From NCBI GenBank assembly GCA_016188425.1, contig JACPHX010000020.1:1821-65820 (forward strand): 64,000 nt of DNA, written 5' to 3'. Positions 1,716 through 47,235 of this stretch are shown here, piece after piece; the stretch's first letter is position 1; each line of letters starts with the position of its first letter. Below the pieces are notes generated by a model, which did not search any database, was not told the origin of the DNA, and saw only the letters and a list, made by a program, of their open reading frames with translations. The position numbers and the translations under genes are program-made. Source of the DNA: Candidatus Uhrbacteria bacterium (GTDB lineage Bacteria > Patescibacteriota > Patescibacteriia > UBA9934 > GWF2-40-263).

Positions 1716-1789
1716 GCGGTTGCTCGGGGGGAATAGCTCGGGTACATTATACCCAAGGAGGCAAAGGCATCAATGCGGATTTATTTTTT

Positions 1790-2407: not shown

Positions 2408-2410
2408 GGT

Positions 2411-2812
2411 ATGGCCGTTTCGCTGCTTATAGATGGGCACGACATTCGGTGGATATTTTTTGCGATCATCGCGGAGGGGGGAGGAGGGAGGGGGGAGGTG
2501 AAGGGGATGCAACAGGTTTTTGCAGAGCCGGAGGGATTCTTGGGCGCGTTGGATGGTTTTTTGAATAGACAGGGGGAAAAGCTTCCGGACGTCGATGCCC
2601 TTTATGCCGTCCCTGGCCCCGGATCATTTACCGCTTGCCGCACATCGATCGCCCTTGTGAATGGCATCGCCTGGACCCGGTCGCTTCCGCTCTTTTCGAT
2701 TCCTCCGCTGTCGGCGCCGACGGTCGAGGATGTGCGCGATGCGCTCGCGCAGGCAAAACCCGTCTTGCTTCCGCTGGCTCCTGCCTACGACCGTCCACCG
2801 ACCATAACCTGA
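2411..2812 (+). CDS. tsaB: TsaB/YeaZ-like (inactive Kae1/TsaD homologue), short form
   Basis: Motif VPGPGSFTACRTSIALVNGIAW matches TsaB GPGSFTG(L/V)R(I)G; ATG at 2411 immediately after the upstream stop. Confidence 0.5.
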   Translation: MAVSLLIDGHDIRWIFFAIIAEGGGGRGEVKGMQQVFAEPEGFLGALDGFLNRQGEKLPDVDALYAVPGPGSFTACRTSIALVNGIAWTRSLPLFSIPPLSAPTVEDVRDALAQAKPVLLPLAPAYDRPPTIT

Positions 2813-2822
2813 TCCTCCCCCT

Positions 2823-4355
2823 GTGTTACTCCATTACCAAGTTGACACGAATACGAAGCAGCAAACGGCGTACCAATATGGGGACAGCCGTTTTTGGGAA
2901 ATGGTTCCGGGGCTGCTCGTGTGGGGCACGCTTCTTTTTGCTCTCGGGCTTTCGGTCTTGCGCCCGCTGTGGGCGATCGTGTTCGTCGTGGTGTTTGATT
3001 TGTATTGGTTGATCCGCGTGTTGTATTTCAGCGTCTTCCTTTGGGTTTCTTATCGACGGTATCGGGAGGCGACAGCGACCCTGTGGGGGGAGAAGTTGCG
3101 GAGTCTTCCGCGGGCGGCGGCGTTGCATCATCTCATTTTCCTTCCCACCGTCGAGGAGGATGTCTCCATCCTGCGGAAGACATTGCGCGCCTTGGCCGCC
3201 TCGAGTTTTCCCGCGAAACGGATGATCGTGGTGCTCGCGGGAGAAGAGAAGTTTCAGACGGAGTTCCGGGCGCGGGCCGATCACATGCAACGAGAATTCG
3301 GATCGCGGTTTGCCGCCGTTCTGGCGACCGTGCACCCGCGCGGGCTTCCGGGGGAGATCCCTGGAAAGGGATCCAATTTACACTGGGTCGGGTTGCAGAT
3401 GGAACAATGGCTTCGTGAGCATCTGCCCACGGTGGCGGATGAAGACCTCATCGTGTCGGCATTCGATGTGGATACCGTCGTGCATCCGGAATATTTTTCG
3501 TATTTGAGCTGGCTGTATGCGACCGCGTCCCGCCCCGAGCGCAGCTCCTACCAGCCGGTGGCTCTCTACGGCAATAACATTTGGACGGCACCCGCGCCTG
3601 TGCGCGTGGCGGCCTTTGGAACCAGTTTCTGGCTGATGGGGGAGATGTCGCGTCCGGAACGGTTGTGGACTTTTTCTTCGCATTCCATGCCCTGGAAGAT
3701 GGTGCGGGACATCCGGTTCTGGCAGAAAGATATCGTGAGCGAAGATTCGCGTATTTTTTTACAAGGGTTCATTCATTATCATGGCGATTTTCGCGTGACG
3801 CCGATGTATTTGCCGGTTTCGATGGATGCCGTAAGCGGCGCGAGTTATACGGATTCGTTGCGTAATCTTTACAAGCAACTGCGCCGGTGGGCGTGGGGGG
3901 TGGAACACCTGCCCGTGATGGTCCGTGAGTTTTCCCGCGATAGGCAGATGCCGTTTTGGAAAAAAATCCGTTCCGTGTTCAACCATATAGAAGGGATGTA
4001 CACCTGGGCCACCGCGCCGATCCTTATCTTCGTTTTGGGGTGGCTTCCGCTTCAACTCGCGGATCCATCGGAGGTGCTTGTGCAAGTGTCTCCGACGACC
4101 TTGGCGATCGTGATGCGCGCCGCGACCGCGGGGATTCTGCTGACGGGGGTGTTGGCGTTCCGGCTTCTTCCTCCGCGTCCCGGCACCGTTCCTCGGCGTA
4201 CGTGGCTCTTTATGGGGCTTCAGTGGCTGATGCTGCCGGTGACATTCGTTGTGTTTGGTTCGCTCCCCGCCATCGATGCGCAGACCCGGTTGATGATCGG
4301 CCGGTACTTGGGGTTCAATGTCACGGAGAAAAAGGCGCTAGGCGCCAGGCGTTAG
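2823..4355 (+). CDS. membrane-embedded family-2 glycosyltransferase (processive, cellulose/chitin-synthase-like)
   Basis: Multiple N- and C-terminal hydrophobic helices, a GT-A core, and YKQLRRWAWG matching the Q(R/Q)xRW motif of processive GT2 synthases. GTG at 2823; alternative ATG at 2901. Confidence 0.7.
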   Translation: MLLHYQVDTNTKQQTAYQYGDSRFWEMVPGLLVWGTLLFALGLSVLRPLWAIVFVVVFDLYWLIRVLYFSVFLWVSYRRYREATATLWGEKLRSLPRAAALHHLIFLPTVEEDVSILRKTLRALAASSFPAKRMIVVLAGEEKFQTEFRARADHMQREFGSRFAAVLATVHPRGLPGEIPGKGSNLHWVGLQMEQWLREHLPTVADEDLIVSAFDVDTVVHPEYFSYLSWLYATASRPERSSYQPVALYGNNIWTAPAPVRVAAFGTSFWLMGEMSRPERLWTFSSHSMPWKMVRDIRFWQKDIVSEDSRIFLQGFIHYHGDFRVTPMYLPVSMDAVSGASYTDSLRNLYKQLRRWAWGVEHLPVMVREFSRDRQMPFWKKIRSVFNHIEGMYTWATAPILIFVLGWLPLQLADPSEVLVQVSPTTLAIVMRAATAGILLTGVLAFRLLPPRPGTVPRRTWLFMGLQWLMLPVTFVVFGSLPAIDAQTRLMIGRYLGFNVTEKKALGARR

Positions 4356-4459
4356 GTATCGAGGAGTTAGGAGCAGTAGAAAACAAGCAAGGAAACAATG
4401 ATCTGGGATCGTCCGTCCGCCCCCCCCTAGCGCCCAACGCCTAGCGTCTCCCCCCCTCT

Positions 4460-5536
4460 ATGACCGAAACCATCTCAATCCATCTGGTCACCTGGAACAG
4501 CGCCCGCCATTTGCCGGCGCTTTTGGAGTCGATCCAAGCGCAGAGCGAGCCGCGTTTCTCGGTGCGCGTGGTGGATAATGCTTCCGAAGACCGGTCGCGA
4601 GAGATTGTGCGGGAGCAATTTCCCAGCGCGCTCCTCATGCGCAATGCGCGTAACAACGGGTTTGCGAGCGCGCATAACCAAGCGATTCGCTACGCGCTCG
4701 ACCATTGGGAGGGAGAAGACCTGTCTGACAAGTATATAGTGCTCATCAATCCGGACATCATCCTGAAACCGACATGCCTAGAGGAATTGCTTCGGGTGGC
4801 GCGGGCGCATCCGTCCGCCTCTTGCGTCGGCGCGAAACTGCTTCGGACATTCACGGAAAGCGGGAGCGATGAGGTGTTGTCGGAAAAGACTCCGTCGGAC
4901 ATCATCGATTCATTGGGACTGCATCCGCATCGGAACCGTTCGATCACGGAGTGGCGCGCGGGCGAGCTTGATCGAGATCCCCATCCCGCCGGGCGGATGC
5001 AAGGCACAGAGGGGGAAGAGGAAGAGGTGTTCGGCATCTCCGGCGCGCTCGCGCTGTATCGGGCCAGCGCCCTGGCGGATGCCTCGGCAGAAGGGGCCGT
5101 ATTCGATCCGTCGTTTTTTTCTTACAAGGAGGATGTGGATTTGGCGTGGCGGCTGCGATGGCTGGGATACGAGGCTTGGTGTGCGCCAAGAGCCGCGGCC
5201 TTCCACGAACGAGGGATGGCCGCGCCGTCTCTGCATGGCTTTTGGGCGCGCGTCTCGCATCGACGACGCCAGCCGGACCGACGAAAATATTATTCGAACC
5301 GCAACCACTGGCTCTTGCTCATCAAGAACGAATCCGCAGGCAGCCTGTTCCTGTCTGCTCCTTGGATCCTCTTGCACGAAGCGAAGCGCGTGCTGTACAC
5401 CCTGTGCATAGAACCGTTGGGGCTTGGAGCATTCGCGTCCGCTTTTCTTGGATTTCCGCGTGCTTGGAAAGCCAGGCGCTTGCTGATATCCCGCCGACGC
5501 GTGAGTCCCAAGGATATGCGGAAATGGTTTGTATGA
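4460..5536 (+). CDS. family-2 glycosyltransferase (rhamnosyl/galactosyl-transferase-like)
   Basis: N-terminal ISIHLVTWNSARHLPALLESIQAQS...VRVVDNASED is a typical GT2 start; ATG at 4460. Confidence 0.75.
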   Translation: MTETISIHLVTWNSARHLPALLESIQAQSEPRFSVRVVDNASEDRSREIVREQFPSALLMRNARNNGFASAHNQAIRYALDHWEGEDLSDKYIVLINPDIILKPTCLEELLRVARAHPSASCVGAKLLRTFTESGSDEVLSEKTPSDIIDSLGLHPHRNRSITEWRAGELDRDPHPAGRMQGTEGEEEEVFGISGALALYRASALADASAEGAVFDPSFFSYKEDVDLAWRLRWLGYEAWCAPRAAAFHERGMAAPSLHGFWARVSHRRRQPDRRKYYSNRNHWLLLIKNESAGSLFLSAPWILLHEAKRVLYTLCIEPLGLGAFASAFLGFPRAWKARRLLISRRRVSPKDMRKWFV

Positions 5537-6396
5537 TTTCCATCCTGATCGTCCACTACAATACGCCTGGTCTCCTGCGGCAAACATTGCGCGGGTTTGA
5601 GCGCTGTCCTCCGACGGTCCCATTTGAGTTGGTGGTGGTGGATAACAATCCCACGCAGCGGGTCGCGAGTTGGGTTGCGGCCGAATTTCCGCAGGTAAAA
5701 CTGGTTGTGTCAGAATACAATCGCGGGTTTGGCGGAGCCATGAACGTGGCGGCCGCCGCGGCCGCGGGCGATTATCTGTTTGTATTCAATCCCGACATCG
5801 CGATTTTTCCAGGCGTATTGGAAGGGCTCACTTCGTTTCTGGACGAGAACCCCGATGTGGGAGTGGTAGGCCCGCAACTGCGCAACGCGGATGGCACGGT
5901 GCAATATAGTTGTTACCGTTTTATGACCCCCGCGATCGTCCTGTACCGGCGCCTGCCTGGGGCCGCGCTGTTTGCAAAGGCTCGCAGCGTTGTTTCCTCC
6001 TATCTCATGGAGGATGCCGACCATTCCAAGGTGCAAGATGTTGATTATCTCCTGGGGGCCTCGTTGTTTATGCGTCGGACGCTGTTTCAAAAATTAGGCG
6101 GGTTCGACCCCAAGTTGTTCATGTATTTTGAGGACCAGGATTTTTGTCGCCGAACCTGGATGTCGGGGTCGAGGGTTGTGTATTATCCCCTGGTCCACCT
6201 GGTTCACTACCATCGACGGGAAACCGCCCACGGAAACGTGCTGCGACAGCTTTTTCAGCGTCTGACGCGTATTCAAATGCGCAGCGCGTGGTATTATTTC
6301 CGTAAATATAAAGGACAGGAGAATCCAAGGAGGGGGGGAGGGTGGAGGGGGGAGGGGGGAGACAGGGAGCGGGGAGCGAATGGACCTGCAAGCTGA
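5533..6396 (+). CDS. family-2 glycosyltransferase; C-terminal tail encoded by a poly-G repeat
   Basis: MISILIVHYNTPGLLRQTL...LVVVDNNPT is a GT2 start. The ATG at 5533 overlaps the upstream stop as ATGA (alternative ATG at 5524). The tail RRGGGWRGEGGDRERGANGPAS is read from the G-rich arm of the repeat at 6338. Confidence 0.7.
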   Translation: MISILIVHYNTPGLLRQTLRGFERCPPTVPFELVVVDNNPTQRVASWVAAEFPQVKLVVSEYNRGFGGAMNVAAAAAAGDYLFVFNPDIAIFPGVLEGLTSFLDENPDVGVVGPQLRNADGTVQYSCYRFMTPAIVLYRRLPGAALFAKARSVVSSYLMEDADHSKVQDVDYLLGASLFMRRTLFQKLGGFDPKLFMYFEDQDFCRRTWMSGSRVVYYPLVHLVHYHRRETAHGNVLRQLFQRLTRIQMRSAWYYFRKYKGQENPRRGGGWRGEGGDRERGANGPAS

Positions 6397-6478
6397 TTTT
6401 GTACCCTTGGTTGTTTCCATTCCTTCCTACCCCTTTTCCCAATCCTCCTCCCTCCCCCCTCCACTCCTCCCACCTCTC
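6338..6478. repeat. poly-G arm (6338..6363) and poly-C arm (6421..6478) forming an inverted homopurine/homopyrimidine element
   Basis: ggagggggggagggtggaggggggaggggggag ... cctcctccctcccccctccactcctcccacctctc. The same architecture occurs in frame inside secA at 62559..62654. Confidence 0.5.
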
Positions 6479-6479
6479 T

Positions 6480-8498
6480 ATGCCTCAACCCCCAACCTTA
6501 CTAACTGCAACCCCCCTCCCACCAAAGAGGAAATCACCTCACCGTGCCGGTCGGCTGATCCTTCTTGGGTTGTTGGTGCTCATTGTGTGGATAAGCACCA
6601 CCCTTGTGTTTGCTTTGCTCGCGGCCCGAGCGGCATTTGCGGGGCGGGATGCGTTATTGGCGGCCCGTGGGGAGATTGAATCCATGCAATTTTCCGCCGC
6701 CGCGGATTCATTGAAGCGTTCCGGAGATCAGTTCCGCGTGGCGCAATCTCGACTTGCCTTTATCACCCCTTGGGATCATCTGCCTTATACCGGCGATCAG
6801 CTCATGGCCATCAAGGGTTTAGTGGAGGGGGGCGTACAGGTGGCAGATGTCCTTTCTTCCCTTGTGGGTTTGGGTGAGGATCTCTTGGCTCTTTCTGACC
6901 TGTCCAAGGAACGACTTCTCGAGCTTCAGCAAGCCGGGGAAATTCCGCATGCCTACGCCACCCTTTCTCTGGATACAAAAGCGGCCTTGTTGCGCCGTCT
7001 CGAAGCCGCTTCGCCCGAATTGTTGCTTCTTTCAACAAAGCTTGATCTTATCGGTCGGTCACTGCAACAACAGGTATCCAACCAAGCGGTCGCCACGTTG
7101 CTTGCGGACGTGCTTCGTCCTGTCCGTGCCCAAGTAGGAGAACTCTCGGAGCGTTTGCGTGGCCTGTCTGCCTTTGCCCGTGTCGTCCCGTCGTTGCTTG
7201 GAACAGACAAAGATTCTCATCTGATGGTCCTTTTTCTTAACAACGATGAGCTGCGGCCTGGGGGTGGATTTTTGGGGACATTCGCCCAGGCCACTTTGCG
7301 GGTCGGGGAGTTGAAAGAGATTGCGGCGCACGACAGCTACTCGCTTGATACGCCTGCCGGCGGCGCTGGGGCAGTGATCCTTCCTCCGCCGGTCCCGTTG
7401 GAGCGGTACAACAATACCCACGGTTGGTTCCTTCGCGATGCGAATTGGTCGCCCGATTTTCCGACGTCCACCCAGCAAGTGCTGCGGCTGTATAAACATG
7501 AACGCGGCCAGCTTCCTCCAGAAGCCCAGGAGGAGTGGCCTTCGGAAGAACCGGATTTTGTTTTCGGCATGACGCCCGATGTCGCTTCCGCCTTGTTGAC
7601 GGCCACCGGGCCGCTTATGATCCGTGACACACGGATCACCTCGGAGAATATTTCGGAGGTGCTCCAGTACGAATCGCAAGTCGGGTTTGCCGATCGCGGG
7701 ATCCCGTTTGAACAACGCAAAACCATCCTGCTGGAATTGGTGCCCAAGATGCTTGAGCGATTGCAGGCGCTGCCGCTTTCCTCCGTTCGGAACGTGCTGT
7801 CGCTGTTGCAGGATCAAGCCGACCATCGGCAGCTGATGGCCTGGGCGCGCCAGCCATCCATTCAAGACACGTTTACGAGGCTTGGATGGGCGGGGGAGAT
7901 GAGCGCGCAAGGGGACGTGCAGATGGTGGTCGACGCCAATTTGGCGAGCTTAAAAACCGACCCTGTAGTTTTGCGGGCGATCCGGTATGAGATCAGCAAG
8001 AACACCGATGGAAAATATGTCGGGCGCACAACCATTCGATATGCGCACACGGGTTCTTTCGATTATAAAACAACCCGTTACCGCACCTACGTGCAGCTCT
8101 ATCTTCCCTCTGGCTCCGAATTGATCCGCGCCACCGGTTTGTTGCGAGACGATAGGATCAACGATCCGGACGGACATCCGGGAGAGGTTGATGTCAAAAC
8201 GGATGGCGGGTTCACCGCGTTGGGCGGCTTCACGTCGATTGAGCCGAGCCAGACCCGCGAGATCACCTTCGATTATTTGCTTGCTCCGTCGGTCGTGTCT
8301 CTGATTGATGCGGGAACCTATCGTCTGAACGTCATAAAGCAGCTGGGCGCGGACGATCGTGCATTGACGCTCCATCTCGATTTTGGTAAGACGCTCACAC
8401 GCGCATCTCCTTCGGAGGAACGGGACCATTGGGGCGACACCATCTACGATTGGTCGGGAGTTCTGGAAGGAAAGAGCGCGTTTGAGGTTGGACTGTAA
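6480..8498 (+). CDS. DUF4012-like membrane-anchored protein (polysaccharide-locus associated)
   Basis: ATG at 6480 (internal M47 of ORF 6342..8498), then TM helix LILLGLLVLIVWISTTLVFALL. Motif LFLNNDELRPGGGFLGTF resembles the conserved RPxGGF(I/L)G core of DUF4012. The DUF number is assigned from memory. Confidence 0.55.
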   Translation: MPQPPTLLTATPLPPKRKSPHRAGRLILLGLLVLIVWISTTLVFALLAARAAFAGRDALLAARGEIESMQFSAAADSLKRSGDQFRVAQSRLAFITPWDHLPYTGDQLMAIKGLVEGGVQVADVLSSLVGLGEDLLALSDLSKERLLELQQAGEIPHAYATLSLDTKAALLRRLEAASPELLLLSTKLDLIGRSLQQQVSNQAVATLLADVLRPVRAQVGELSERLRGLSAFARVVPSLLGTDKDSHLMVLFLNNDELRPGGGFLGTFAQATLRVGELKEIAAHDSYSLDTPAGGAGAVILPPPVPLERYNNTHGWFLRDANWSPDFPTSTQQVLRLYKHERGQLPPEAQEEWPSEEPDFVFGMTPDVASALLTATGPLMIRDTRITSENISEVLQYESQVGFADRGIPFEQRKTILLELVPKMLERLQALPLSSVRNVLSLLQDQADHRQLMAWARQPSIQDTFTRLGWAGEMSAQGDVQMVVDANLASLKTDPVVLRAIRYEISKNTDGKYVGRTTIRYAHTGSFDYKTTRYRTYVQLYLPSGSELIRATGLLRDDRINDPDGHPGEVDVKTDGGFTALGGFTSIEPSQTREITFDYLLAPSVVSLIDAGTYRLNVIKQLGADDRALTLHLDFGKTLTRASPSEERDHWGDTIYDWSGVLEGKSAFEVGL

Positions 8499-8507
8499 TT
8501 TTTTCTT

Positions 8508-9512
8508 GTGTTTCAAAAAAAAATCGGCATAGACCTTGGAACCACGACGGTGCTTGTGTATGCCCCGAAGCGGGGGATCATTATTCATGAACCCTCGGTT
8601 GTTGCTGTTTCGGTCATAGACAATAAGGTGTTGGCGGTGGGGAAGGAAGCCAAGGACATGCTTGGGCGCACCCCAGACACCATCGTCGCCCGCCGCCCGC
8701 TCAAGGACGGCGTGATTGCGGATTATCGCACCACCGAGGCCATGTTGCGGTATTTTATCAACAAAGCCCTGGGAGGATTTCGTCTGTTCCGCCCCGAAGT
8801 CATGGTGGCTGTTCCCGGAGGCATTACTTCTACGGAACGACGCGCGGTTATCGACGCGACCCTCTCTGCGGGCGCCAAGGCGGCCTACGTCATCCCGGAG
8901 CCGATCGTAGCGGCGATAGGGGCAAACATCCCCATCGGCTCGCCCTCGGGGCACATGATTATCGATATCGGGGGCGGTACGGCCGAGATGGCGGTCATTT
9001 CGTTGGGAGGCATCGTTGCCTCGGCTTCTATCCGCATCGGCGGGGTAAAGATCGATGCGGCCATCATGGAATACATCCGCCGCAAATATGGGCTCGCGAT
9101 CGGGGAGCGCACCTCGGAACAAATCAAGATAGACATCGGGGCGGCCATGTATATGCCGGAAAAGCTCACGATGGAGGTGCGCGGGCGCGACATGATCAGC
9201 GGCCTTCCAAAGATCATCACGGTCACAAGCGACGACGTCACCGCCGCGATCCAAAATGAACTTGAGGGCATCATCGCGACGGTCAAAGAAGTGTTGCACA
9301 AAACCCCGCCAGAGCTCGCCGCCGACGTCATGGACAAGGGCATTGTCATGTCCGGCGGTTCCTCCCAATTGCGCATGCTTGATCGTCTTATCGCGGAGGC
9401 CACGGGTGTTCCTACGTTCGTCGCGGAGGATACGCAGCAATGCGTGGTGAAGGGGACGGGGATCGCGCTGGAAAATTTGGAGGCGTATAAGAGGAGTATT
9501 TTTACGAGGTAG
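8508..9512 (+). CDS. mreB: rod-shape-determining protein MreB
   Basis: MFQKKIGIDLGTTTVLVY...DIGGGTAEMAV...MSGGSSQL are actin-fold MreB signatures; GTG start at 8508. Confidence 0.9.
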   Translation: MFQKKIGIDLGTTTVLVYAPKRGIIIHEPSVVAVSVIDNKVLAVGKEAKDMLGRTPDTIVARRPLKDGVIADYRTTEAMLRYFINKALGGFRLFRPEVMVAVPGGITSTERRAVIDATLSAGAKAAYVIPEPIVAAIGANIPIGSPSGHMIIDIGGGTAEMAVISLGGIVASASIRIGGVKIDAAIMEYIRRKYGLAIGERTSEQIKIDIGAAMYMPEKLTMEVRGRDMISGLPKIITVTSDDVTAAIQNELEGIIATVKEVLHKTPPELAADVMDKGIVMSGGSSQLRMLDRLIAEATGVPTFVAEDTQQCVVKGTGIALENLEAYKRSIFTR

Positions 9513-9534
9513 ATGTCGAGTTTGATTAATATAC

Positions 9535-9564
9535 AAAACCTCCAATTTCTTGGAGGTTTTGTTG
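9535..9564 (+). terminator. intrinsic terminator after mreB
   Basis: aaaacctccaa-tttc-ttggaggtttt followed by gttg: an 11-bp perfect stem with a T-rich tail. Confidence 0.7.
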
Positions 9565-9582
9565 ATCTCGGCTAACCCGAGA

Positions 9583-9696
9583 ACTTGGCTTATCATCCGT
9601 GGATACTATACATGAACTTTTGACGGCAGTCAATTTTTTGAATGTGGTGGAGATGCGGGGATTTGCACCCCGGAGATTTTGGATGATAAGCCAAGT
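9583..9696. repeat. 16-bp perfect inverted repeats bracketing an 82-bp segment that carries a tRNA 3'-end fragment
   Basis: ACTTGGCTTATCATCC at 9583..9598 and its exact reverse complement GGATGATAAGCCAAGT at 9681..9696. Confidence 0.7.
9645..9672 (-). other. tRNA 3'-end fragment (T-arm + acceptor 3' strand + CCA); att-site-like remnant
   Basis: The minus strand reads CGGGG-TGCAAAT-CCCCG-CATCTCC-A-CCA. No complementary 5' acceptor strand (GGAGATG) occurs upstream, so this is not a complete tRNA. Confidence 0.5.
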
Positions 9697-9716
9697 CCCG
9701 GACTATAGTCCCCACA

Positions 9717-10355
9717 CTATGAAACAGGACTGAGTCCGAGAATCGTGTAGGGGAATGTTGTTGAGTTGAGAAACATGACGAACTCGTCCGTCGCCGCATC
9801 AATATCATCGATGAAGCGGTTGTGCGTGATTTCTGACCGTCCACGTTTCCAAACATGTTCCTGAGGATTTTCCTCGGGTGCATATTTGGGAAAATGAATC
9901 ACTTCGATGTTGCCATCTTGCTTCACGAACTCCTGAACGACCGATCCTCGGTGCCAGCCAGCGTTGTCCCACAGAAGGACAATTTTTTGTTTTGGGTAGA
10001 TGGAACGAATTTGTTTGAGTGCGTCCGCCGTCACAACCATGTTTTGCTTGAGCGTTTTGATGGCATGTTCCTGTCCGGTCTTCAGATTGAGAAAGCCGTA
10101 GATTTGTATTCTTTGAATGCTTGAATTCGCCACGTCCACACGCACTGTCTCTCCTTGAGGCAGCCAGACTTTCTGCGTGGTCGTCTTGGTGGTGAGGATC
10201 ATCTCATCGGCAGCAAGGATGACGGTTCCTCGATCATCGAAATGCTTTTGAACCAATGGTCTTGTGGCCTTTCTCCATACCCGAACCTCTTTTTCGTTGT
10301 GCTCGTGGTATCGACGCTCTGGTTTGTGATAGCTGAAAGACGCTTTGCGAAACAC
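9717..10355 (-). mobile_element. IS630/Tc1-mariner-family transposase, DDE catalytic domain only (N-terminal HTH part missing)
   Basis: DDE triad contexts ILAADEMIL, LLWDNAGWHRG, HFPKYAPEENPQEHVWK. Only 212 aa where ~340 aa is typical for this family. Its start codon abuts or overlaps the 5' end of the RT reading frame. Confidence 0.75.
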
Positions 10356-11215
10356 AAGATACAGGGACGTTTTGGACTTGTATAAATGCTATTTCATAAT
10401 GTGATCACTATAAACGTCGTTACATCCACAAAGCGGCCGTACGCGACCGTGTCGTGCACCGCGCGATTCACCGAATACTGTACCCGTTCTTTGATCGACT
10501 GTTTATCTCAGACTCTTTCTCTTGCCGTGTCGGCAGGGGGACTCACAAGGCGCTCGATCGTTTTCATGAGTTTTCCTATCAAGCCAGCCGGAATCATCAC
10601 CGAACTTGCTGGGTGCTCAAATGCGATATCCGTCGATTTTTCGATTCGATCGATCACTCCGTACTACTGGATATCTTGAAGATGAGAATATCAGACTAAC
10701 GAATAGTCGATCTCCTGGCGACCATTATCGACAGCTACGAAATTACTCCAGGAAAAGGCCCCCCGCTTGGGAACCTTACAAGCCAGCTCTTTGCCAATGT
10801 CTATCTCAATGAACTCGACCAATTCATGAAGCACCGAATGAAGGCGCAAAAGTACATCCGTTACGCGGATGATTTTGTTATTTTTTCTGCGGAACGGGAT
10901 TATTTGCTTTGCATCTTGCCGCTCATCTCTGATTTTCTACGGAAGCGATTAATACTCGAATTGCATCCCAAGAAAGTATCGATAAACACGAGTGCCTCCG
11001 GCATCGATTTTCTGGGCTGGATCCATTTTCCCGACTATCGCATCCCCCGGCATGCCACCATACGCCGTATGTGGAAGCGCATCATCGACGATTTTTCCAA
11101 GGAAACCTTCGCCTCGTATCGGGGGCTTTTATCTCATGGAAATACCTTTGGCCTGCAAAATGATTTGTCTAATTTTACTTGGTTATTTCACGATACAAGG
11201 AAAAGTATTATTTGA
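10337..11215 (+). pseudogene. diversity-generating-retroelement (DGR)-type reverse transcriptase, N-terminally truncated, with one in-frame TAA
   Basis: A single reading frame (2) is continuous from about 10337 to 11215 except for a TAA at 10697..10699. It encodes RDRVVHRAIHRILYPFFDR, GRGTHKALDR, VLKCDIRRFFDSIDH, PLGNLTSQLFANVYLNELD (the DGR-RT hallmark [I/L]GxxxSQ, close to Bordetella bRT IGSLTSQLFANVY), YIRYADDFVIF (YxDD), LELHPKK and GIDFLGW. About 60 N-terminal residues are missing relative to bRT. Confidence 0.75.
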
Positions 11216-11427
11216 AATTTTGTTGCCGCTGATTTGCTGTAGTACAGGTATTCATTTTTATTTGATATTGAGATTTTGACATTGGACACCCCCCTCTTTC
11301 CTTGACCTTTTCCCCCACCCATGTTGACAACCTTCGTATTTCCTGGCCTTTTCTCTTTATCAATCTGCCGTGCTTGTGCTAGCATGGGGCGGTAGTAACG
11401 TTTACTAATTTTTTCTTGTTTCCTGCT

Positions 11428-11709
11428 ATGGCCAAGATGACCAAAAGCCAGATGATGGCTACCCTCGCTGAAGAGTCGGGGCTCGCTAAGAAAGATGTCG
11501 TCATGCTCCTTGAGAAGATGACGAACATGGCCTATAAGCACGTGAAGTCCGATGGCGAGTTCACGCTCCCAGGCATCGGCAAGCTCGTCAAAAAGCACCG
11601 CGCCGCTCGTGCAGGCCGCAACCCGGCGACGGGTGCGACGATCCAGATCCCTGCCAAGACCGTCGTAAAGTTCCGCGTCGCGAAGGCCGCGAAGGAAGCG
11701 ATCCTTTAA
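11428..11709 (+). CDS. hup: HU/IHF-family DNA-binding protein
   Basis: MAKMTKSQMMATLAEESGLAKKDVVMLLEKMTNMAYKHVKSDGEFTLPGIGKLVKKHRAARAGRNPATGATIQIPAKTVVKFRVAKAAKEA, the beta-arm motif R.GRNP.TG. Confidence 0.8.
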   Translation: MAKMTKSQMMATLAEESGLAKKDVVMLLEKMTNMAYKHVKSDGEFTLPGIGKLVKKHRAARAGRNPATGATIQIPAKTVVKFRVAKAAKEAIL

Positions 11710-11720
11710 GAGGAAGAAGA

Positions 11721-11747
11721 AACAGGCGCTGATCACGCCTGTTTTTT
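11721..11747 (+). terminator. intrinsic terminator after hup
   Basis: aacaggcg-ctgatca-cgcctgtt followed by tttt. Confidence 0.75.
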
Positions 11748-11755
11748 CATAATAT

Positions 11756-11800
11756 GCTAACCCCGAGCGTTAGCAGCCGCTGCCAACGCTCGGGGTTAGC
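11756..11800 (+). promoter_or_regulatory. 16-bp-stem hairpin in the hflX leader
   Basis: gctaaccccgagcgtt-agcagccgctgcc-aacgctcggggttagc, perfect stem, 9 nt before the hflX ATG. Confidence 0.4.
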
Positions 11801-11808
11801 ACTCGCCT

Positions 11809-12912
11809 ATGGAACGAGCCATCCTCATCGATATCATTCCCCCGCGCATGCGGGTCCAAGACAGCCGCGATCGGCTGGATGAATTGGAGTCCTTGGTGCG
11901 CACGTATGGCGGGGTCGTGGTCGTGAAGACGCATCAGCGCCGCGCAACGCCCCATCCTCGGACGTTCATCGGGCCGGGGAAGATCGAGATGATCGCGCAG
12001 GAGGGGAAAGAGCTGAAGGCTACGATGCTCATCATCAACAACCAGCTCAAGCCTCGCCAGACGTACCTTATCGCCGAGGCGCTACGGCCGGCCGGCATCC
12101 GTGTCATGGACCGGGTCGACCTTATCCTCCACATTTTCCGCAAGCACGCCCAGACGGCCGAGGCGAGGTTGGAGATCGAATTGGCGGCGGTACGCCATAT
12201 GGGCCCGCGCATCTTCGGCATGGGCGCGGAGCTGTCTCGCCAAGGCGGGGGCATCGGAACGATGGGGATCGGGGAGACGAACACGGAGCGTATGAAACGC
12301 CACCTCAAGGAGCAGGAGCGGCAGATTCAGAAAGAGTTGGAGAAATACGAGCATGTCCGCGCGAACCATCAGAAGGGGCGCCGGCGTCGAGGATTGAGAA
12401 CAGTCGCGATCGTCGGGTACACGAACGCGGGGAAGACGACGTTACTGAACGCCCTGACTGGTCGGAAAGAATACGCCGCGGACAAACTGTTCGCGACGCT
12501 CGATACGCGCGTCGGGTCTTTGTATATCCCGTCGACGCACGAGACGCTTCTCGTCTCTGACACGATTGGCTTTATCAAAGACCTTCCACCGACATTGATC
12601 AACGCGTTCGCCTCGACCTTGTCGGAAACCGTGCAAGCGGATCTGCTTCTCCAAGTCGTCGACGCCGCGGATCCGCATCTTGCCGACCATCTCAGGGTTG
12701 TCGACGAGATCCTTGAGAAAATCGGCGCGTCTGGCATCCCAAGGTTCGTTGTCTTTAACAAGATGGACGCCGCGGGGAAACGGGTGAAGGCGAAGTTGCG
12801 GCGGCTCATTCCAACGGGAGCCGCCTCTGTGTTCGTGTCGGCAGAGAAGAAAGAAGGGATGGAGGGGTTGGTGGGAGAGATTGAGAGGAAGGTGAGGAGA
12901 GAAGCAAAATAA
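11809..12912 (+). CDS. hflX: GTPase HflX
   Basis: HflX N-domain followed by the G-domain VAIVGYTNAGKTTLLNALTG...DTIGFI...NKMD. Confidence 0.9.
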   Translation: MERAILIDIIPPRMRVQDSRDRLDELESLVRTYGGVVVVKTHQRRATPHPRTFIGPGKIEMIAQEGKELKATMLIINNQLKPRQTYLIAEALRPAGIRVMDRVDLILHIFRKHAQTAEARLEIELAAVRHMGPRIFGMGAELSRQGGGIGTMGIGETNTERMKRHLKEQERQIQKELEKYEHVRANHQKGRRRRGLRTVAIVGYTNAGKTTLLNALTGRKEYAADKLFATLDTRVGSLYIPSTHETLLVSDTIGFIKDLPPTLINAFASTLSETVQADLLLQVVDAADPHLADHLRVVDEILEKIGASGIPRFVVFNKMDAAGKRVKAKLRRLIPTGAASVFVSAEKKEGMEGLVGEIERKVRREAK

Positions 12913-13006
12913 TAATCGTGAATATAGTCAATTATTTATGTATATTCACGATTATCTTGACAATAATCGTGAATATGGCTATGATATAGTAAATATTCAC
13001 GATTAT
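12912..13006 (+). promoter_or_regulatory. fic promoter (TTGACA-17-TATGAT) interleaved with four 14-bp operator half-sites forming two palindromic operators
   Basis: ATAATCGTGAATAT at 12912..12925 and 12963..12976; its inverse ATATTCACGATTAT at 12942..12955 and 12993..13006; 30-bp half-site spacing within each pair. TTGACA at 12957..12962 and TATGAT at 12980..12985, 17-bp spacer. Confidence 0.55.
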
Positions 13007-13007
13007 T

Positions 13008-13895
13008 ATGCCACGCCAAAAAACATTCTATACCAGGATCGAAGCTTTGCGGAAACGCCATTTTTTGGCTTTACCAGGCAAAGAATCGCTTATCAGCCTC
13101 CTCAACGAGGCGGAAGTCTCGGAGCAGGTTTATAACTCGAATGCCATTGAAAACAGCACGCTTTCGCTTGAGGAGACAGAGAAGATTCTTCTCCAGGTAG
13201 ACCTGGACCGATTCATCAATGAACGGGAAATCTTTGAGGCGAAGAACCTTGCACGGGTCATGGAATACATGACGGCAAAAGCAAAGGATAAGGACCTGGA
13301 TAAAGAGACAATCCTGCTTTTGCACAAGATGCTCATCTTGAATATCCGTGACGAGATCGCTGGGCGTTTCCGTCGTGGGAATGAGTGGGTACGTGTTGGG
13401 AGCTATGTCGCCTCAAACCCCGCCGACGTCGAGTCCCTTATTGACCGCATGTTGGCTGACTATCAGGGGAATGCGGACCAGCACATCGTGAAACGCATCG
13501 CTTCGCTTCACCTGACGTTCGAACACATCCATCCCTTCGTGGATGGTAACGGCCGCATCGGTCGTGTGATGAACAACTACGCGCTTGTCCGTGGCGGGTA
13601 TGTCCCGATTACCGTGCGGTATGCGGACCGGGAAAAGTACTACCAAGCGTTCAAGGATTTTGATGCGAAGAATGATACGACGGTCATGGAAGAAATCGTT
13701 GGCACGGCGCTGGTCGAGAGCTACCACAAACGGCTGGCGTACTTGGAGGGGAAGAGCATCGTGCCGCTCATCGAATATTCCAAACGAGAAAAAATTGCTC
13801 TCTCGAACCTACTCAACAAGGCGAAGCGGCAAACGATAGAGGCGTTCCGGGAAAAGGGGGTTTGGAAGATCGGGGTGGGGAAGGAAAAAGAATGA
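13008..13895 (+). CDS. fic: Fic/Doc-family protein (AMPylase-type)
   Basis: Canonical Fic motif HPFVDGNGRIGR; ATG at 13008. Confidence 0.85.
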   Translation: MPRQKTFYTRIEALRKRHFLALPGKESLISLLNEAEVSEQVYNSNAIENSTLSLEETEKILLQVDLDRFINEREIFEAKNLARVMEYMTAKAKDKDLDKETILLLHKMLILNIRDEIAGRFRRGNEWVRVGSYVASNPADVESLIDRMLADYQGNADQHIVKRIASLHLTFEHIHPFVDGNGRIGRVMNNYALVRGGYVPITVRYADREKYYQAFKDFDAKNDTTVMEEIVGTALVESYHKRLAYLEGKSIVPLIEYSKREKIALSNLLNKAKRQTIEAFREKGVWKIGVGKEKE

Positions 13896-13899
13896 GCGT

Positions 13900-14801
13900 A
13901 TGAAAAATGAACGCACAAGTCGGGTGTATGGCTCCGTGGCGGTATTTCTGTCGGCGCTCTTCTTTGGAAGCTACGGCGTATGGTCCCGCCTGATCGGCTC
14001 GGGAATGGGGAATTTTTTCCAAGGGTGGACACGTGCACTCATCATCATCGTTTTGATCCTTCCGTTTGTCCTCTTGCGACGGGAATTCGTCCGGATCGGG
14101 AAACAGGACCGCCCATGGCTGGCGGTGTTCCTTGTGTGCACATCGATGACTCAGGCGCCGCTGTTCTATGCGTACAACCACATGGACATCGGGACCGCCT
14201 CGTTGCTGTTTTTCGTGTCGATGTTCCTCACGATGAACTTCGTCGGCATCGGGTTCTTTCGAGAGAAGATGACCACAGCGAAAGTCGTGGCGATCGGCGG
14301 AGCCATCGTTGGCATGTGCCTCGTGTTCTCATTTTCCACGATTTCGTTTTCGCTTCTGGCGGCGCTCATGGCCCTGGCAAACGGCGTGGCCAGCGGAGGA
14401 GAGATCGCCTTTTCCAAGAAGCTTTCCTCGGGCTATTCACCCCTCTACCTTCACTCCTTAGTTGGATCGTGATCCTTTTTACGAATGCCCTCATTTCGTT
14501 GCTGCTTCATGAGGTGCAAATCCTCCCCAGCTTCTCTGCTGTATGGTTCTGGCAACTCTGTTATAGCGTCGTTTCGCTCTTTGGGTTCTGGCTCGTCATC
14601 GCCGGTTTGAAACGTGTCGATGCTACGATTGGGGCGCTTATCGGCTTGTTGGAGATCGTCTTCGGAGTGGCATTCGGTATCCTCTTTTTTAGAGAGGACC
14701 TGACAGCGAGTGTGGTTGTTGGAGGGTTGCTGATCGTGGGAGCGGCGTCGTTGCCGAATGTGTGGGAAATGATAAAGGAGAAGAGAGTGCTTGAAACATA
14801 A
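13900..14801 (+). pseudogene. EamA/DMT-family transporter with a frameshift (frame 1 to frame 3 near 14440..14470)
   Basis: ORF 13900..14472 encodes the first EamA repeat; ORF 13980..14801 in another frame carries the second (…SLLSWIVILFTNALISLLLHEV…). The junction lies at a CCCC run (cacccctctacc). Confidence 0.6.
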
Positions 14802-14866
14802 AAAAGTTGTCTTTCAAGAACGTTGGTTCATTGACCTGGCTCGATTGAATGTTACTATCAGCATAT

Positions 14867-16060
14867 ATGCGTTTATTCTCCCTTCTCTCCCTTTTCTTTT
14901 TCCTCCCCTCCCTCGCCCAAGCCGCCACGGTTCCCATCGCGCAGCAGATGAAAGGATCCATCCTCCTCTCGGTCGAGCAGCATGGAGAAGCTTGGTATGT
15001 GTCACCCAAAGACGGGGAACGCACCTACCTTCAAGGACCTTTGGTCGCCTACCAGGTGTTGCGCCAGCAGGGAGTCGGCATTACCGATGCCGACTTGGCA
15101 CGCATCCCGCTCGCGGTGCCGCCGCTTGGGTCAGGTTCGGATGTTGATGGAGATGGGTTGGATATTGAATTTGAAAAAGCGGTCGGGCTTGATCCGATGG
15201 TCGCGGACACGGATGGGGACGGGGTGAACGACGGTGTCGAAATCGCCAAAGGGCTGGATCCGCTGCGAGCGAAGATGGCAGCGCCGTCTATTGCCTTTGC
15301 AATGAAGCACAAAGGGAAGATCTTTTTGCAGGTCCAGCATCGAGGAGAAGCGTGGTGGGTCAATCCCAAGGATTTCAAACGATATTATCTGGGGACGCCA
15401 GAGCTGACGTATGCGCTCCTTCGTTCGCAAGGGAAAGGGATCTCCCAGAAAGATTTGAATACGATCCCCGTAACAGGAAACCAAATCGATTGTCTGGGGT
15501 CGATGGATTGTTTCAAGGCGGCCGTCGACAACCGTCAGACAGCCGTGATGGATTACCAGGAATCAAGCCAGGAGAAAGGTGGGTTCGCCTACACGTTTGT
15601 CACATCATTATCTTTCTCGTCGGATGACGCGACCACGATGAGGTTATCGTCCGATGTGAAGGTTTACATCCCGGCGACCGAAGCGGAGATCCGGAAAAAT
15701 GGCGCGTACTCTGATGCGGAAGTAGCGGACACGCTCGCCCGTTTGCAAGCGAAGCGCGTCGTTGTCCTTGGGCGAGGCATGACCTGTACCACCAATCAGA
15801 CCGTGGTCGCACAGGCCATCCTCGACCACACGTATTTCACCCTCCCGCGAGCGATCCCCTATAACCTGCTGTCCTTTTGGTACACCAAGGATGCTGAGGG
15901 AAAAAATGTCGTACATGTATCTCCCGAAATCGACAAGACGAAAGTGAATACCGCCACCTGCCACCTCGTGGAAGATGGGAAGATTATTAAAAGCAAGACG
16001 TACGATGTGAATCGGGACATGGCGGAGTTTGAGGAACAGCAGAGATTATTGCAGCGATAG
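14867..16060 (+). CDS. secreted repeat protein with TSP3-like Ca-binding motifs
   Basis: Signal peptide MRLFSLLSLFFFLPSLAQA; two copies of a ~50-aa module (ILLSVEQHGEAWYVSPKDGERTYL / IFLQVQHRGEAWWVNPKDFKRYYL); DTDGDGVNDGVE motif. Confidence 0.55.
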   Translation: MRLFSLLSLFFFLPSLAQAATVPIAQQMKGSILLSVEQHGEAWYVSPKDGERTYLQGPLVAYQVLRQQGVGITDADLARIPLAVPPLGSGSDVDGDGLDIEFEKAVGLDPMVADTDGDGVNDGVEIAKGLDPLRAKMAAPSIAFAMKHKGKIFLQVQHRGEAWWVNPKDFKRYYLGTPELTYALLRSQGKGISQKDLNTIPVTGNQIDCLGSMDCFKAAVDNRQTAVMDYQESSQEKGGFAYTFVTSLSFSSDDATTMRLSSDVKVYIPATEAEIRKNGAYSDAEVADTLARLQAKRVVVLGRGMTCTTNQTVVAQAILDHTYFTLPRAIPYNLLSFWYTKDAEGKNVVHVSPEIDKTKVNTATCHLVEDGKIIKSKTYDVNRDMAEFEEQQRLLQR

Positions 16061-16182
16061 AAAGTCGTCTGCATGCCTCTCACTTACGTGGCCGTCAGGA
16101 AGTTGAAGAAAGCGGAAAACAAGATTACTACGACCGGCAGACAGATTTCAGCCCGTTCCATTTTTAACAAGGCGATAGGATT

Positions 16183-16824
16183 GTGGGGAAGATTATCGAA
16201 AATAAACCAATCCTCTTCGTCGATTTCAACGGGGTTCTTTCCTATCGCAACTTCTGGTTCTCTTTAGAGGAAGTATCACATCCACTTTCTTCGCTCCTTG
16301 CCCCTATCCAAGAATTGGTCTTTTCCAAAAAGAAAGAACTCTGCAGTGATTGGATGCGGGGAATGTACACGAGTGAGCAGATCCATGAACGGATCGGAAT
16401 CGAACTTGGAATCGATGTAACGGCGCTCTGGGAACAGTTTGTCATTGATTGCAGAAATCTTGACGTTTCTTTATTGCTCTTGGACAAGATCCGACAGCTC
16501 AACGAAAAATACGTGTGTATTTTACGCACGGACAATATGGATACATTGGAACGGTTCACGATACCCGCACATCCTGAAATGAGGGATGCGTTCCATGAGA
16601 TCCACAACTCGTATGCCCTCGGCCAATTGAAGGGGGATGATGGCGGGAGGTATTTTTTGGACATGGTGAGGCGGTATCAGACTAATCTTACTTTTTGTGT
16701 GCTTGTCGATGATTCGGAAACGGTTTGTAGTCTATTTCGTTCGTTAGGAGGGAAAAGTTATTGCGTGACGGGAGAGGATCAGGTTTTTATTGTCTTTGAT
16801 CAATTGCATGGTAAAATTTTGTGA
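16183..16824 (+). CDS. HAD-superfamily hydrolase-like protein in an AT-rich (~43% GC) segment
   Basis: ILFVDFNGVL (HAD motif I, DxDG(T/V) type) and VLVDDSE (motif IV); TTG start. Confidence 0.45.
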   Translation: MGKIIENKPILFVDFNGVLSYRNFWFSLEEVSHPLSSLLAPIQELVFSKKKELCSDWMRGMYTSEQIHERIGIELGIDVTALWEQFVIDCRNLDVSLLLLDKIRQLNEKYVCILRTDNMDTLERFTIPAHPEMRDAFHEIHNSYALGQLKGDDGGRYFLDMVRRYQTNLTFCVLVDDSETVCSLFRSLGGKSYCVTGEDQVFIVFDQLHGKIL

Positions 16825-16833
16825 ACATTTTTT

Positions 16834-17392
16834 ATGATTGAACGGAGAGAAGGGATGATTCCTGAACTGGGCGTCCAAGAAAGATTGAAAGCAGAATTGC
16901 TGGACGGCCGTCTCTCGGCGGCCGATTTTATTGCTAGTCTAATGAAGTTGGATCAGTCGACGCCTTCGAGGGATCAAGCGGAGGGAAACGTGAAGGTCCC
17001 GACAGATCCGTTGGTTTCAGAGGTCTTAGGACGAGATGAGGATGTTGCTTCTGATTTTAACAATTTGCTTTCCCTGTCTTTTTTCCATATTGGTCAAAAG
17101 AAACTTTTTTGAAAAAAACAGGGAAGCAAGGAGTGATTTTGAAAAGGCCTTGAAAGCGGCAGAAAAAGTGAATGATGGTGGATACGAAGAATGGGTATAT
17201 TACATTCGTGCGACAATGGCGTATTTGGACCAGAATGTTTCAGAACTTGAGCAGATGGTCGTGGGGATGGAACCAGGGTCAAATCGAAACATCGTTCTCC
17301 ATATGATCTTTGGACTGAAGACATTCGGGAATGTCGATTACGACCGGGATTACAGGAATACCGATCCTTCGTTAGACACTCCTTCATCCTGA
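16834..17392 (+). pseudogene. hypothetical gene split into two ORFs (16834..17112 and 17036..17392) by a +1 shift at a T6/A7 homopolymer tract
   Basis: aaaagaaacttttttgaaaaaaacagg at about 17095..17121; the two ORFs would fuse to ...SDFNNLLSLSFFHIGQKK-FFEKNREARSDFEKALKAAEK... Confidence 0.3.
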
Positions 17393-17400
17393 GATAAAAA

Positions 17401-17428
17401 AACACCGCCTTCCAGCGGTGTATTTTCA
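17401..17428. terminator. hairpin terminator between convergent genes (before the rpmB 3' end)
   Basis: caccgc-loop-gcggtg followed by tattttcaa. Confidence 0.5.
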
Positions 17429-17432
17429 ATGC

Positions 17433-17663
17433 TTACTTTCCCATCTTGGTCAGATCGTATTTCTTTCCCTCTGCCTGCCATTTTTTGAGTGTGCGCAGTC
17501 CCCGGGTCGAGATGACGACGGTTTCCGTGCGGCCGGTGGCGGGGTTCATGAGCTTGCGCTTCATGAGGTTTGGGTAGAGCTTGCGCAGCGTGTGGCGCTT
17601 GCTATGGCTCACGTTCATGCCCGTGGTGGTTGTTTTTCCTGTAACAATGCAGACTTTTCCCAT
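17433..17663 (-). CDS. rpmB: 50S ribosomal protein L28
   Basis: MGKVCIVTGKTTTTGMNVSHSKRHTLRKLYPNLMKRK aligns with E. coli L28 [21 protein letters not shown]...FLPNL. Confidence 0.85.
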   Translation of the reverse strand: MGKVCIVTGKTTTTGMNVSHSKRHTLRKLYPNLMKRKLMNPATGRTETVVISTRGLRTLKKWQAEGKKYDLTKMGK

Positions 17664-17689
17664 AGGGGTAATATTCAGATCTTTTTGAG

Positions 17690-17815
17690 GTTGCTGGGAG
17701 TGTAGCGGAAGGGTGGGGGGAAGGCAAGGGCGGGGAGGGCCAGGGAGGGCTAGAAAAGGCCAGGAAGGACTGGAAGAGTCGGGAGAGGGGCAAGAGGACT
17801 AAGAAGGACTAGGCG
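17690..17815. repeat. purine-rich low-complexity repeat (ggcaaggg / gccaggga / actaagaagg units)
   Basis: Seen directly: ...gaagggtggggggaaggcaagggcggggagggccagggagggctagaaaaggccaggaaggactggaagagtcgggagaggggcaagaggactaagaaggactaggcgg. Confidence 0.4.
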
Positions 17816-17817
17816 GA

Positions 17818-18375
17818 TTAAAACTCGTACACGTAAAGCGTACGGCCGAATTTGTCTTGATGTTGCAATGGAATAATGCGAACGGGTGTGCGGCCGTGTA
17901 TGGGAAAGTCACCGTCGACCACACGGGTGCCGGGGCGGAGGATGTTCTCAAATCTGGGGAGCAAGATTTGCATCGGTTTGGGGTAGAGGAAAGTGTAGAT
18001 CTGGGTTGCGTCAGAGAGATCCATCGTAAAGATGTTTTCTCGAAGGAAAGTCAAGTTTTTTGTTTTTACGTTCCGCGCGCGCCACCGCGCGAGCCAGACC
18101 GGCACATGGGCCTTATCAACGCCGATGCATCGGGCTCCTGGTTGTGCCTCGGCCGCGGCGCGCACCACCCGGCCGTCGCCGCATCCAAGATCGTAAAAGA
18201 CGGATCCCCCCTTGAGGTCGAGTGCCTTGAGGATTTCAGGGACAGCGCGTGGGTTTATGTTGATGAACGGGGCGCGGGTGATGACGATGGGGAGTATGCA
18301 ATAGAGGAGGAAGAGGAGTGTGGCGCAGAGGAGGAAGAGGATGAGGAGGTAAAAGAGGATCGCGAATGTCTCCAT
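17818..18375 (-). CDS. N-terminally TM-anchored class I SAM-dependent methyltransferase (paralogue of 30172..30672)
   Basis: TM helix FAILFYLLILFLLCATLLFLLYCILPIV, then LDLKGGSVFYDLGCGDGRVV (SAM-binding motif I). Start at internal M58 of ORF 17818..18546. Confidence 0.6.
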   Translation of the reverse strand: METFAILFYLLILFLLCATLLFLLYCILPIVITRAPFININPRAVPEILKALDLKGGSVFYDLGCGDGRVVRAAAEAQPGARCIGVDKAHVPVWLARWRARNVKTKNLTFLRENIFTMDLSDATQIYTFLYPKPMQILLPRFENILRPGTRVVDGDFPIHGRTPVRIIPLQHQDKFGRTLYVYEF

Positions 18376-18376
18376 A

Positions 18377-18919: not shown

Positions 18920-19151
18920 ATGCGTCCATCATAGGAATCGAGAAAGGTTTTGTCTATGGAAACAGAACGGTCGTGTCAGGTCGATGTACGGTGTCGCTGT
19001 CTGCTATACTACCCCCAATCGGCAGGCACGCTGTCGACGTTCATTTTGCTGCCAGAGGGCCAGGGTTCCATTGTTTTTCTTCCCGTTTATTCCACGCCAA
19101 AGAGCACATGCGTTTCGACACGAGTGTGTCAGGCGGGGGTTTTACCTTGTA

Positions 19152-19596: not shown

Positions 19597-19600
19597 ATTG

Positions 19601-19726: not shown

Positions 19727-19750
19727 TGCTCGTGTTACCATGTCCCCACT

Positions 19751-38624: not shown

Positions 38625-38625
38625 A

Positions 38626-47228: not shown

Positions 47229-47235
47229 AGATGGG

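Follow-up and report, generated by a model that had tools for sequence, protein, structure and literature searches.

The question raised by the locus considered here is whether a reverse transcriptase (RT) gene fragment in a Candidatus Uhrbacteria bacterium is what remains of a diversity-generating retroelement (DGR), and what has become of the rest of that element. The fragment lies in a stretch of 64,000 nucleotides (positions 1,821 to 65,820, forward strand, of contig JACPHX010000020.1, assembly GCA_016188425.1), which we refer to as the window and in whose coordinates all positions are given unless a related locus is named. The original prediction, made by a model from the letters and their open reading frames (ORFs), described the forward-strand frame 10337-11215 as a decayed DGR, and this reading has stood: what is found is a DGR-clade RT that is truncated at its 5′ end, nonsense-mutated and without template repeat (TR), variable repeat (VR), target gene or avd. 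We put the probability at roughly 85 % that the locus is a non-functional remnant of a DGR of the type found in the Candidate Phyla Radiation (CPR, Patescibacteria), truncated at an insertion sequence (IS) of the IS630 family and carrying a nonsense mutation.

The first step is the identity of the RT itself. On translation, the frame 10337-11215 (+) gives, in this order, KRRYIHKAAVRDRVVH, KCDIRRFFDSIDH, a TAA codon, LGNLTSQLFANVYL, YIRYADDFVIF and GIDFLGW, the last three of which were named in the original prediction, the first of them as the DGR-RT hallmark. The part that is recognisable as a DGR-type RT pseudogene (10412..11215, +) comprises the 3′ ~79 % of the gene, or ~266 codons plus the stop, and runs from motif 1 (KRRYIHKAAVRDRVVH) to the thumb. 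Motif 2 (KCDIRRFFDSIDH, +) lies 5′ of the in-frame TAA, motif 4 (LGNLTSQLFANVYL, 10766..10807, +) is of the DGR-type [I/L/V]GxxxSQ version, and the catalytic YxDD motif 5 (YIRYADDFVIF, 10853..10885, +) is followed by GIDFLGW (11000-11020, +). The remnant matches the Pfam entry RVT_1 with E=7e-25, and its closest match in the PDB is 8ub7_A (E=4e-27, 98.5 bits), the aligned part of which matches brt of Bordetella phage BPP-1 at 100 % identity (tblastn against phage records), with group II intron RTs next at 3e-19. It aligns to residues 76-319 of the 328 residues of this bRT, and motif 4 in the form xGxLTSQLFANVY, the YxDD motif and the thumb are common to both. Within motif 4, PLGNLTSQLFANVY of the remnant is aligned to PIGSLTSQLFANVY of bRT, as the original prediction of near-identity would have it, whereas a group II RT in the PDB search reads QGGPLSPLLAN. 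The match is nonetheless a distant one, and BPP-1 bRT belongs to a phage element with all components intact and functional rather than to a chromosomal remnant; in the classification of Wu et al. (PMC5758913) the layout of BPP-1 is moreover of the avd-TR-RT and not of the TR-(avd)-RT type.

The nearest relatives of the remnant are found among the Patescibacteria, at 54-66 % identity. Among 5.8 billion proteins searched there are thousands of matching RTs; the best 120 listed are 57-66 % identical and mostly 282-379 residues long, with those sources that are named belonging to the Patescibacteria/Paceibacterota. Neither a closer relative nor an intact allele was found above 66 % in this protein search, related loci in metagenomes reach 63 % at most, and a degenerate 25-codon pattern of the RT gave 0 matches in metagenome contigs. 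A phage origin of the remnant was also considered and is unsupported, the viral contigs of IMG/VR having only 31 %-identical relatives.

The principal alternative at this step is that the fragment is not from a DGR at all, and is left over from a group II intron maturase, a retron RT or a defence RT (defence-associated RT (DRT) or abortive infection (Abi)). Its basis is the NCBIfam search, where no DGR-RT model matched and the group II intron RT/maturase model TIGR04416 came out on top (136.8 bits). That score is far under the cut-off of 300, however, and the scores of the DRT and retron models are a good deal lower again. What the remnant and the group II enzymes have in common is the RT fold family of fingers, palm and thumb together with this sub-threshold similarity; what sets them apart is SQ in place of SP, the best PDB match to bRT, and the missing intron RNA, Rfam giving no match in the window at gathering threshold and none in 9400-11900 at E≤1, intron RNA included. 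The relatives of the remnant also speak against this alternative. In a metagenome survey of 80 loci with 54-63 % identical RTs, the count was made on the 37 whose sequence reaches 1.8 kb or more upstream from the RT start: a reverse-strand avd was present in every one (37/37) and an adenine-biased TR/VR pair in 34. An origin outside the DGRs is very improbable, and the RT, with LGNLTSQ as the sign of its clade, belongs to the DGR clade as far as a fragment can show.

What such an element looks like when complete can be read from these relatives, whose cassettes have the order target gene (~200-300 aa) with its VR, about 340 bp, TR, reverse-strand avd and RT. The TR ends 351-468 bp 5′ of the RT start in the surveyed loci, and in 33 of the 34 loci with a TR/VR pair a distance of 266-482 bp separates the TR from a VR situated upstream of it, which means that everything a DGR of this family needs besides its RT is contained in the roughly 1.2 kb that precede the RT start codon. 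Closer inspection of seven loci gave a reverse-strand avd between TR and RT in all of them (7/7), and the TR/VR mismatches that fall at TR adenines amount to 14/14 in locus L001, 20/22 in L003, 15/15 in L053 and 17/18 in both L042 and L082. The one exception to the spacing, L136, is a remote-target variant of an otherwise uniform layout: its TR is at 3249-3376 and its VR at 6001-6129, which puts the VR downstream of the RT by 2.2 kb, and TR adenines account for 25 of the 26 mismatches. A further observation concerns the locus of the best RT homolog (L005 6403-8972, the cassette also being in L004), which has a target-like gene, an avd and a TR-like sequence at 7448-7545 (nhmmer E=2e-13); self-BLAST of L005 gave no VR partner, and the VR of this DGR may be diverged or lost. 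The TR-(avd)-RT order is architecture B3, which makes up 90 % of CPR DGRs (Wu et al. 2018, PMC5758913), and a cellular, Patescibacteria-restricted group, 'DGR clade 2', was placed by Roux et al. in 2021 (PMC8144416). With 54-66 % RT identity and a host of the same lineage (Candidatus Uhrbacteria), the locus in the window resembles these CPR/Patescibacteria DGRs; it differs from them in that only RT codons ~72 to the end are kept, and with a nonsense codon, in that TR, VR, target and avd are absent, and in that an IS630-type element and mreB occupy the position upstream of the RT. The original layout would have been target/VR, TR, avd on the reverse strand and RT, and of this only RT codons ~72 to the end survive.

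The absence of a TR/VR pair or avd had been noted by eye within about 2 kb, and it extends to the whole 64 kb. No repeat pair with adenine-biased mismatches, the check proposed in the original prediction, came out of self-BLAST and a repeat finder, a method that did recover the pairs of the relatives. Four target proteins and two Avds gave nothing by tblastn (best target E=0.076). Profiles remained at chance level in the window, with best E-values of 0.92 for TR DNA (built from five relatives; 2e-13 in the control L005), 1.3 for Avd (from the avd ORF recovered in seven related loci) and 0.087 or 1.0 for the target C-terminus (from 5 and 37 sequences, respectively; 1e-7 and 2e-5 in the positive control L005). 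The N-termini of six full-length RT relatives likewise have no match elsewhere in the 64 kb (tblastn).

The cause of these losses is to be sought at the 5′ end of the remnant, where the RT sequence breaks off abruptly. The original prediction had the RT extend over 10337-11215 and lack its first ~60 residues. Its 3′ end and the N-terminal loss hold, but RT homology starts only at 10412; this boundary is sharp in 6 of 6 full-length relatives, which align over 10412-11194 (tblastn, E about 1e-106) from their own residue 61-72 onward, so that 60-71 residues are absent by comparison with them, 75 by comparison with bRT and a median of 72 over 101 homologs. The segment 10337-10410 is not RT sequence; it belongs to an IS630-type element, and holds a second in-frame stop at 10397-10399. 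What is left is an RT remnant without a start codon and without its first ~60-72 codons.

The element next to it (9706..10410, minus strand) is a 705-bp non-autonomous member of the IS630 family with terminal inverted repeats (9706-9727 and 10389-10410), a transposase remnant and an internal deletion. Positions 9704-9727 and 10389-10412 are complementary at 19 of 24 positions, including a TA at both outer ends (9704..9705 on the left; 10411..10412 on the right, where the second base of the TA is the first base of RT homology), and the IS terminus reads TATAGTGATCACATTATGAAATAG. TA flanks of the IS630 type are also seen at the related element in L091 and at a miniature inverted-repeat transposable element (MITE) in L015. 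The transposase remnant (ORF 9717-10355, minus strand) matches DDE_3 (PF13358, 1.4e-24) and NF033545 (130.6 bits, above the cut-off of 100), and corresponds to residues 111-331 of 331-aa relatives, with homology spanning 9720-10382. Full-length relatives are 80-87 % identical elements of ~1.12 kb encoding transposases of 331-347 aa, and share with the copy in the window the terminal consensus TATAG..ATCACA..TGAAA. From a DNA alignment with L090 and L091, the internal deletion measures ~410 bp, with its junction at 10382|10383 and only the terminal 28 nt (10383-10410) following, and it is this deletion that makes the element non-autonomous. The copy thus resembles the IS630 family and its MITEs in its DDE_3 transposase, the NF033545 match, inverted termini and TA flanks, but it is without the 5′ untranslated region and codons 1-110, so that the full-length transposase with N-terminal helix-turn-helix domains of an autonomous element is wanting; it would be mobile only with a transposase supplied in trans. 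Nowhere else in the 64 kb is there a second IS copy or a transposase N-terminus.

A related observation is the L015 MITE, a 120-bp element at 13553-13672 with IS630-type ends (TAGCCATCACATTATAAAAT...) and TA flanks, which lies 2.6 kb downstream of mreB in a close relative and suggests that this IS family spawns non-autonomous derivatives in Uhrbacteria.

That RT homology begins at the right-hand TA is as expected had the element inserted at a TA in codon ~71/72 of the RT gene. To the left of the IS is a 190-bp spacer after mreB (8508-9512), which occupies 9513..9703 and in which a terminator-like hairpin (9533-9562) is followed by a 114-nt inverted-repeat element (9583-9696). A simple insertion with the RT 5′ end lying beyond the IS was rejected, there being no tblastn match to the RT 5′ end in 9513-9705 and the ORF 9599-9733 being in the wrong frame and too short. 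Because target/VR, TR and avd stand directly upstream of the RT start in the relatives, the presence of an IS at RT codon ~72 explains the truncation and the missing cassette alike. The 114-nt element, situated between the mreB terminator hairpin and the IS, is an observation of its own: it has perfect 16-nt inverted repeats (ACTTGGCTTATCATCC / GGATGATAAGCCAAGT) and a fold z-score of -5.7, lacks an Rfam match or anything similar in the relatives, and is perhaps a small MITE, or else a structured RNA.

The second lesion is the TAA at 10697..10699 (+), which splits the catalytic core between motif 2 (KCDIRRFFDSIDH) and motif 4 (LGNLTSQLF) and is seen both in the translation and in a Logan contig of 100 % identity. 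As the homologs show K, R, E or Q in this column, a single base change suffices to produce it. Three Logan contigs from run SRR12113421, located by exact-protein look-ups, are 100 % identical to the window: L006 to positions 1-10411, L007 to 10383-11783 and L008 to 11772-19621. Both IS junctions are included in L006 and L007, and L007, which is recorded in two samples, holds the TAA and runs straight from the IS terminus into RT codon ~72.

Could the RT be functional after all, with the TAA a sequencing error or read through, or translation starting at an alternative site? Such a case might be made from the preservation of the frame, since 86 of the 89 columns that are at least 95 % conserved among 101 homologs are kept, without any frameshift. 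Against it, the TAA is reproduced in a second assembly and also terminates the neighbouring HU gene, so that the codon does act as a stop in this genome. The remnant moreover lacks the N-terminal region of ~70 residues that all 101 homologs possess, and downstream of the in-frame stop at 10397-10399 translation could begin no earlier than at a GTG (10454), for a product of a mere 81 aa, with neither template nor target at hand. The largest ORFs left are this one (GTG 10454 to the TAA) and one of 129 aa (10826-11215), and neither holds the whole catalytic core. The locus is therefore no complete, translatable RT gene, its start and first 60-72 codons being absent and a TAA standing at 10697; the remnant should, as judged from its sequence, be incapable of making complementary DNA, and the chance of a functional enzyme is practically nil. 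The proposal that the cassette is intact elsewhere and the stop a sequencing error is likewise unsupported, the stop recurring in the second assembly and the start with ~70 codons being lost independently of it. The well-kept columns also bear on time: with 86/89 retained and the frame unshifted, the inactivation is recent on the evolutionary timescale of the RT family. The three deviating columns are an R/K, a Y/F and the first residue at the junction, and the homologs themselves deviate at 1.1 of the 89 on average and at 3 at most.

A different doubt attaches to the contig itself, in which two IS630-type copies, one after mreB and one in an RT gene elsewhere, could have been collapsed so that the adjacency of mreB and RT is false. 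The Logan contigs break on both sides of the 29-nt IS terminus 10383-10411, in coincidence with the internal-deletion junction 10382|10383. Such a break is the behaviour of a k=31 graph when a terminus of ~29-30 nt has several contexts, for example other IS or MITE copies. A repeat of 29-30 nt is nevertheless resolved by any assembler with k>31 or by single reads, and the deposited NCBI contig of 66,980 bp joins the mreB-IS and IS-RT sides, with consecutive accessions for mreB and the transposase (MBI2551521.1 and MBI2551522.1). We regard a chimera as unlikely, and even then L007 by itself ties the IS terminus to RT codon ~72, which leaves the RT interrupted regardless. L007 has no branch at 10411/10412, and the assembly would thus seem to give no sign of an uninterrupted RT allele.

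The gene order around the locus bears on how the cassette was lost. The GT2-DUF4012-mreB block (5146-9512) is collinear with about 80 relatives, of which the closest mreB-anchored ones are Uhrbacteria with 88-90 % identical mreB. A GT4 glycosyltransferase gene and a TrmB-like gene come next after mreB in those relatives that were inspected, and a holB-like gene is reached a few kb beyond them; none of the three is found in the 64-kb window. Two more distant relatives, L005 and L053, have the order mreB-GT4-...-target/VR-TR-(avd)-RT, with RTs that are 61 % identical (L005) and 66 % identical over the 89 residues before the contig end (L053), and in L042 and L082 a DGR lies just upstream of the GT2-DUF4012-mreB block. 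DGR cassettes thus recur within a few kb of this envelope block in several separate lineages of Patescibacteria, apparently a modest enrichment over chance.

On the reading that we prefer, that of a DGR truncated by an IS630 element, a copy of the element would have inserted at a TA in RT codon ~71/72, and an IS-associated event would then have removed or relocated the RT 5′ end, avd, TR and target/VR along with the GT4 and TrmB genes, the simplest such event being recombination between two IS copies to give a deletion. The change of AAA, GAA or CAA to TAA would be an additional hit, made before or after. The original DGR may have stood a few kb downstream of mreB, in which case an IS-mediated deletion from the mreB spacer to RT codon ~72 would fit the synteny.

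A variant of this history, which we consider a serious if less likely alternative, is that nothing was deleted and that inverted IS630 copies recombined, or a translocation took place, leaving target/VR, TR, avd and RT codons 1-71 beside another IS copy together with GT4, TrmB and holB; the RT would be dead all the same. It would account for the absence from the window of three genes that stand after mreB in every close relative inspected, the last of which, holB, is presumably essential, and for the repeat-like behaviour of the IS terminus in the assembly graph of the sample, which fits more than one copy. The right flank is also not a usual DGR neighbourhood, HU or HflX standing beside the RT in 0 of 91 RT-bearing loci. 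On the other hand, the 64 kb contain neither a second IS copy nor an RT N-terminus, avd, TR or target, and the occurrence of DGRs close to the DUF4012-mreB block in L005, L053, L042 and L082, four other lineages, is in keeping with a DGR that originally stood on the side of mreB. No usable signal of an inversion is given by GC skew around the IS.

Several considerations weigh against the reading that we prefer. The join of mreB-IS to IS-RT in the k=31 Logan assembly rests on a 29-nt repeat-like overlap (10383-10411), and the support for the TAA and the junctions comes from assembled contigs; if two IS copies were collapsed, the adjacency of mreB would be an artefact, with the RT still IS-interrupted. 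Deletion cannot be told apart from inversion or translocation within 64 kb, and the missing holB is a point against a simple large deletion, provided that the ancestor shared the gene order. A DGR is moreover located downstream of mreB in only 2 of about 80 mreB-anchored relatives, which makes the ancestral position uncertain.

As the remnant of a truncated CPR-type DGR, the locus matters little alone, and is new only in adding a defective member to a known family and in illustrating IS-associated DGR loss. It offers a clean, datable example of the death of a CPR DGR, in which an IS630-type element enters the RT gene at a TA, the upstream cassette is lost or relocated, and a codon mutates to a stop, and is a small data point on IS630/MITE activity and gene-order instability downstream of mreB in Uhrbacteria. 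For annotation it is a caution that a DGR-type 'SQ' motif does not make a DGR of an RT match, and that NCBIfam draws such fragments to 'group II intron RT'. A more far-reaching idea, and an improbable one, is that the other half of the DGR (target/VR, TR and avd) persists elsewhere in the genome beside a second IS630 copy and is active through an RT supplied in trans, or that intact and IS-disrupted alleles coexist in the population; were this so, IS630-type elements and MITEs would be switches or erasers of hypermutation cassettes in CPR bacteria.

Turning to the remaining features, the stretch 9513..11415, which takes in the spacer, the IS, the RT remnant and the spacer between RT and HU, has a GC content of 0.42-0.49 as against 0.55-0.63 in its flanks. 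In none of the related loci is there anything similar to either of the two spacers (9513-9705 and 11216-11415).

The window further contains several families of repeats and palindromes. Long GC-rich hairpins of about 115-130 nt occur at 19600-19727, 30675-30800 and 52514-52628, with a related pair at 47233-47345 and 61528-61635. Their arms have a 9-nt period (GGGGCGCAA-like), with predicted energies of -88 to -101 kcal/mol and z-scores of -8 to -11 against shuffles; the family has no Rfam match, is found in none of about 170 related loci and may be a genome-specific element resembling repetitive extragenic palindromes (REPs). The Logan contig L008 ends inside the hairpin at 19600-19727. A GC-rich palindrome of 31-34 nt (GTCCGGCGGAGCCGGATCCGGCTCCGCCGGAC), terminator-like or REP-like in appearance, is present in four copies (38597-38630, 45111-45144, 49324-49358 and 51671-51706), and a perfect 40-nt palindrome (ATACTGTGGCCAAGGGGCATGCCCCTTGGCCACAGTAT) at 49640-49679 has a 92-94 % similar copy 21 kb away at 28544-28581. 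Purine-rich tracts of the GGAGG(G) type are found at 2463-2517, 6334-6378, 45872-45937, 59709-59788 and 62559-62603, with a C-rich complement at 6421-6479. Directly 5′ of a Fic-domain gene (13008-13895), finally, the segment 12909-13009 consists of nested AT-rich inverted repeats with four TTCACGATTAT-type half-sites and a fold z-score of -6.8, an operator-like or terminator-like arrangement.

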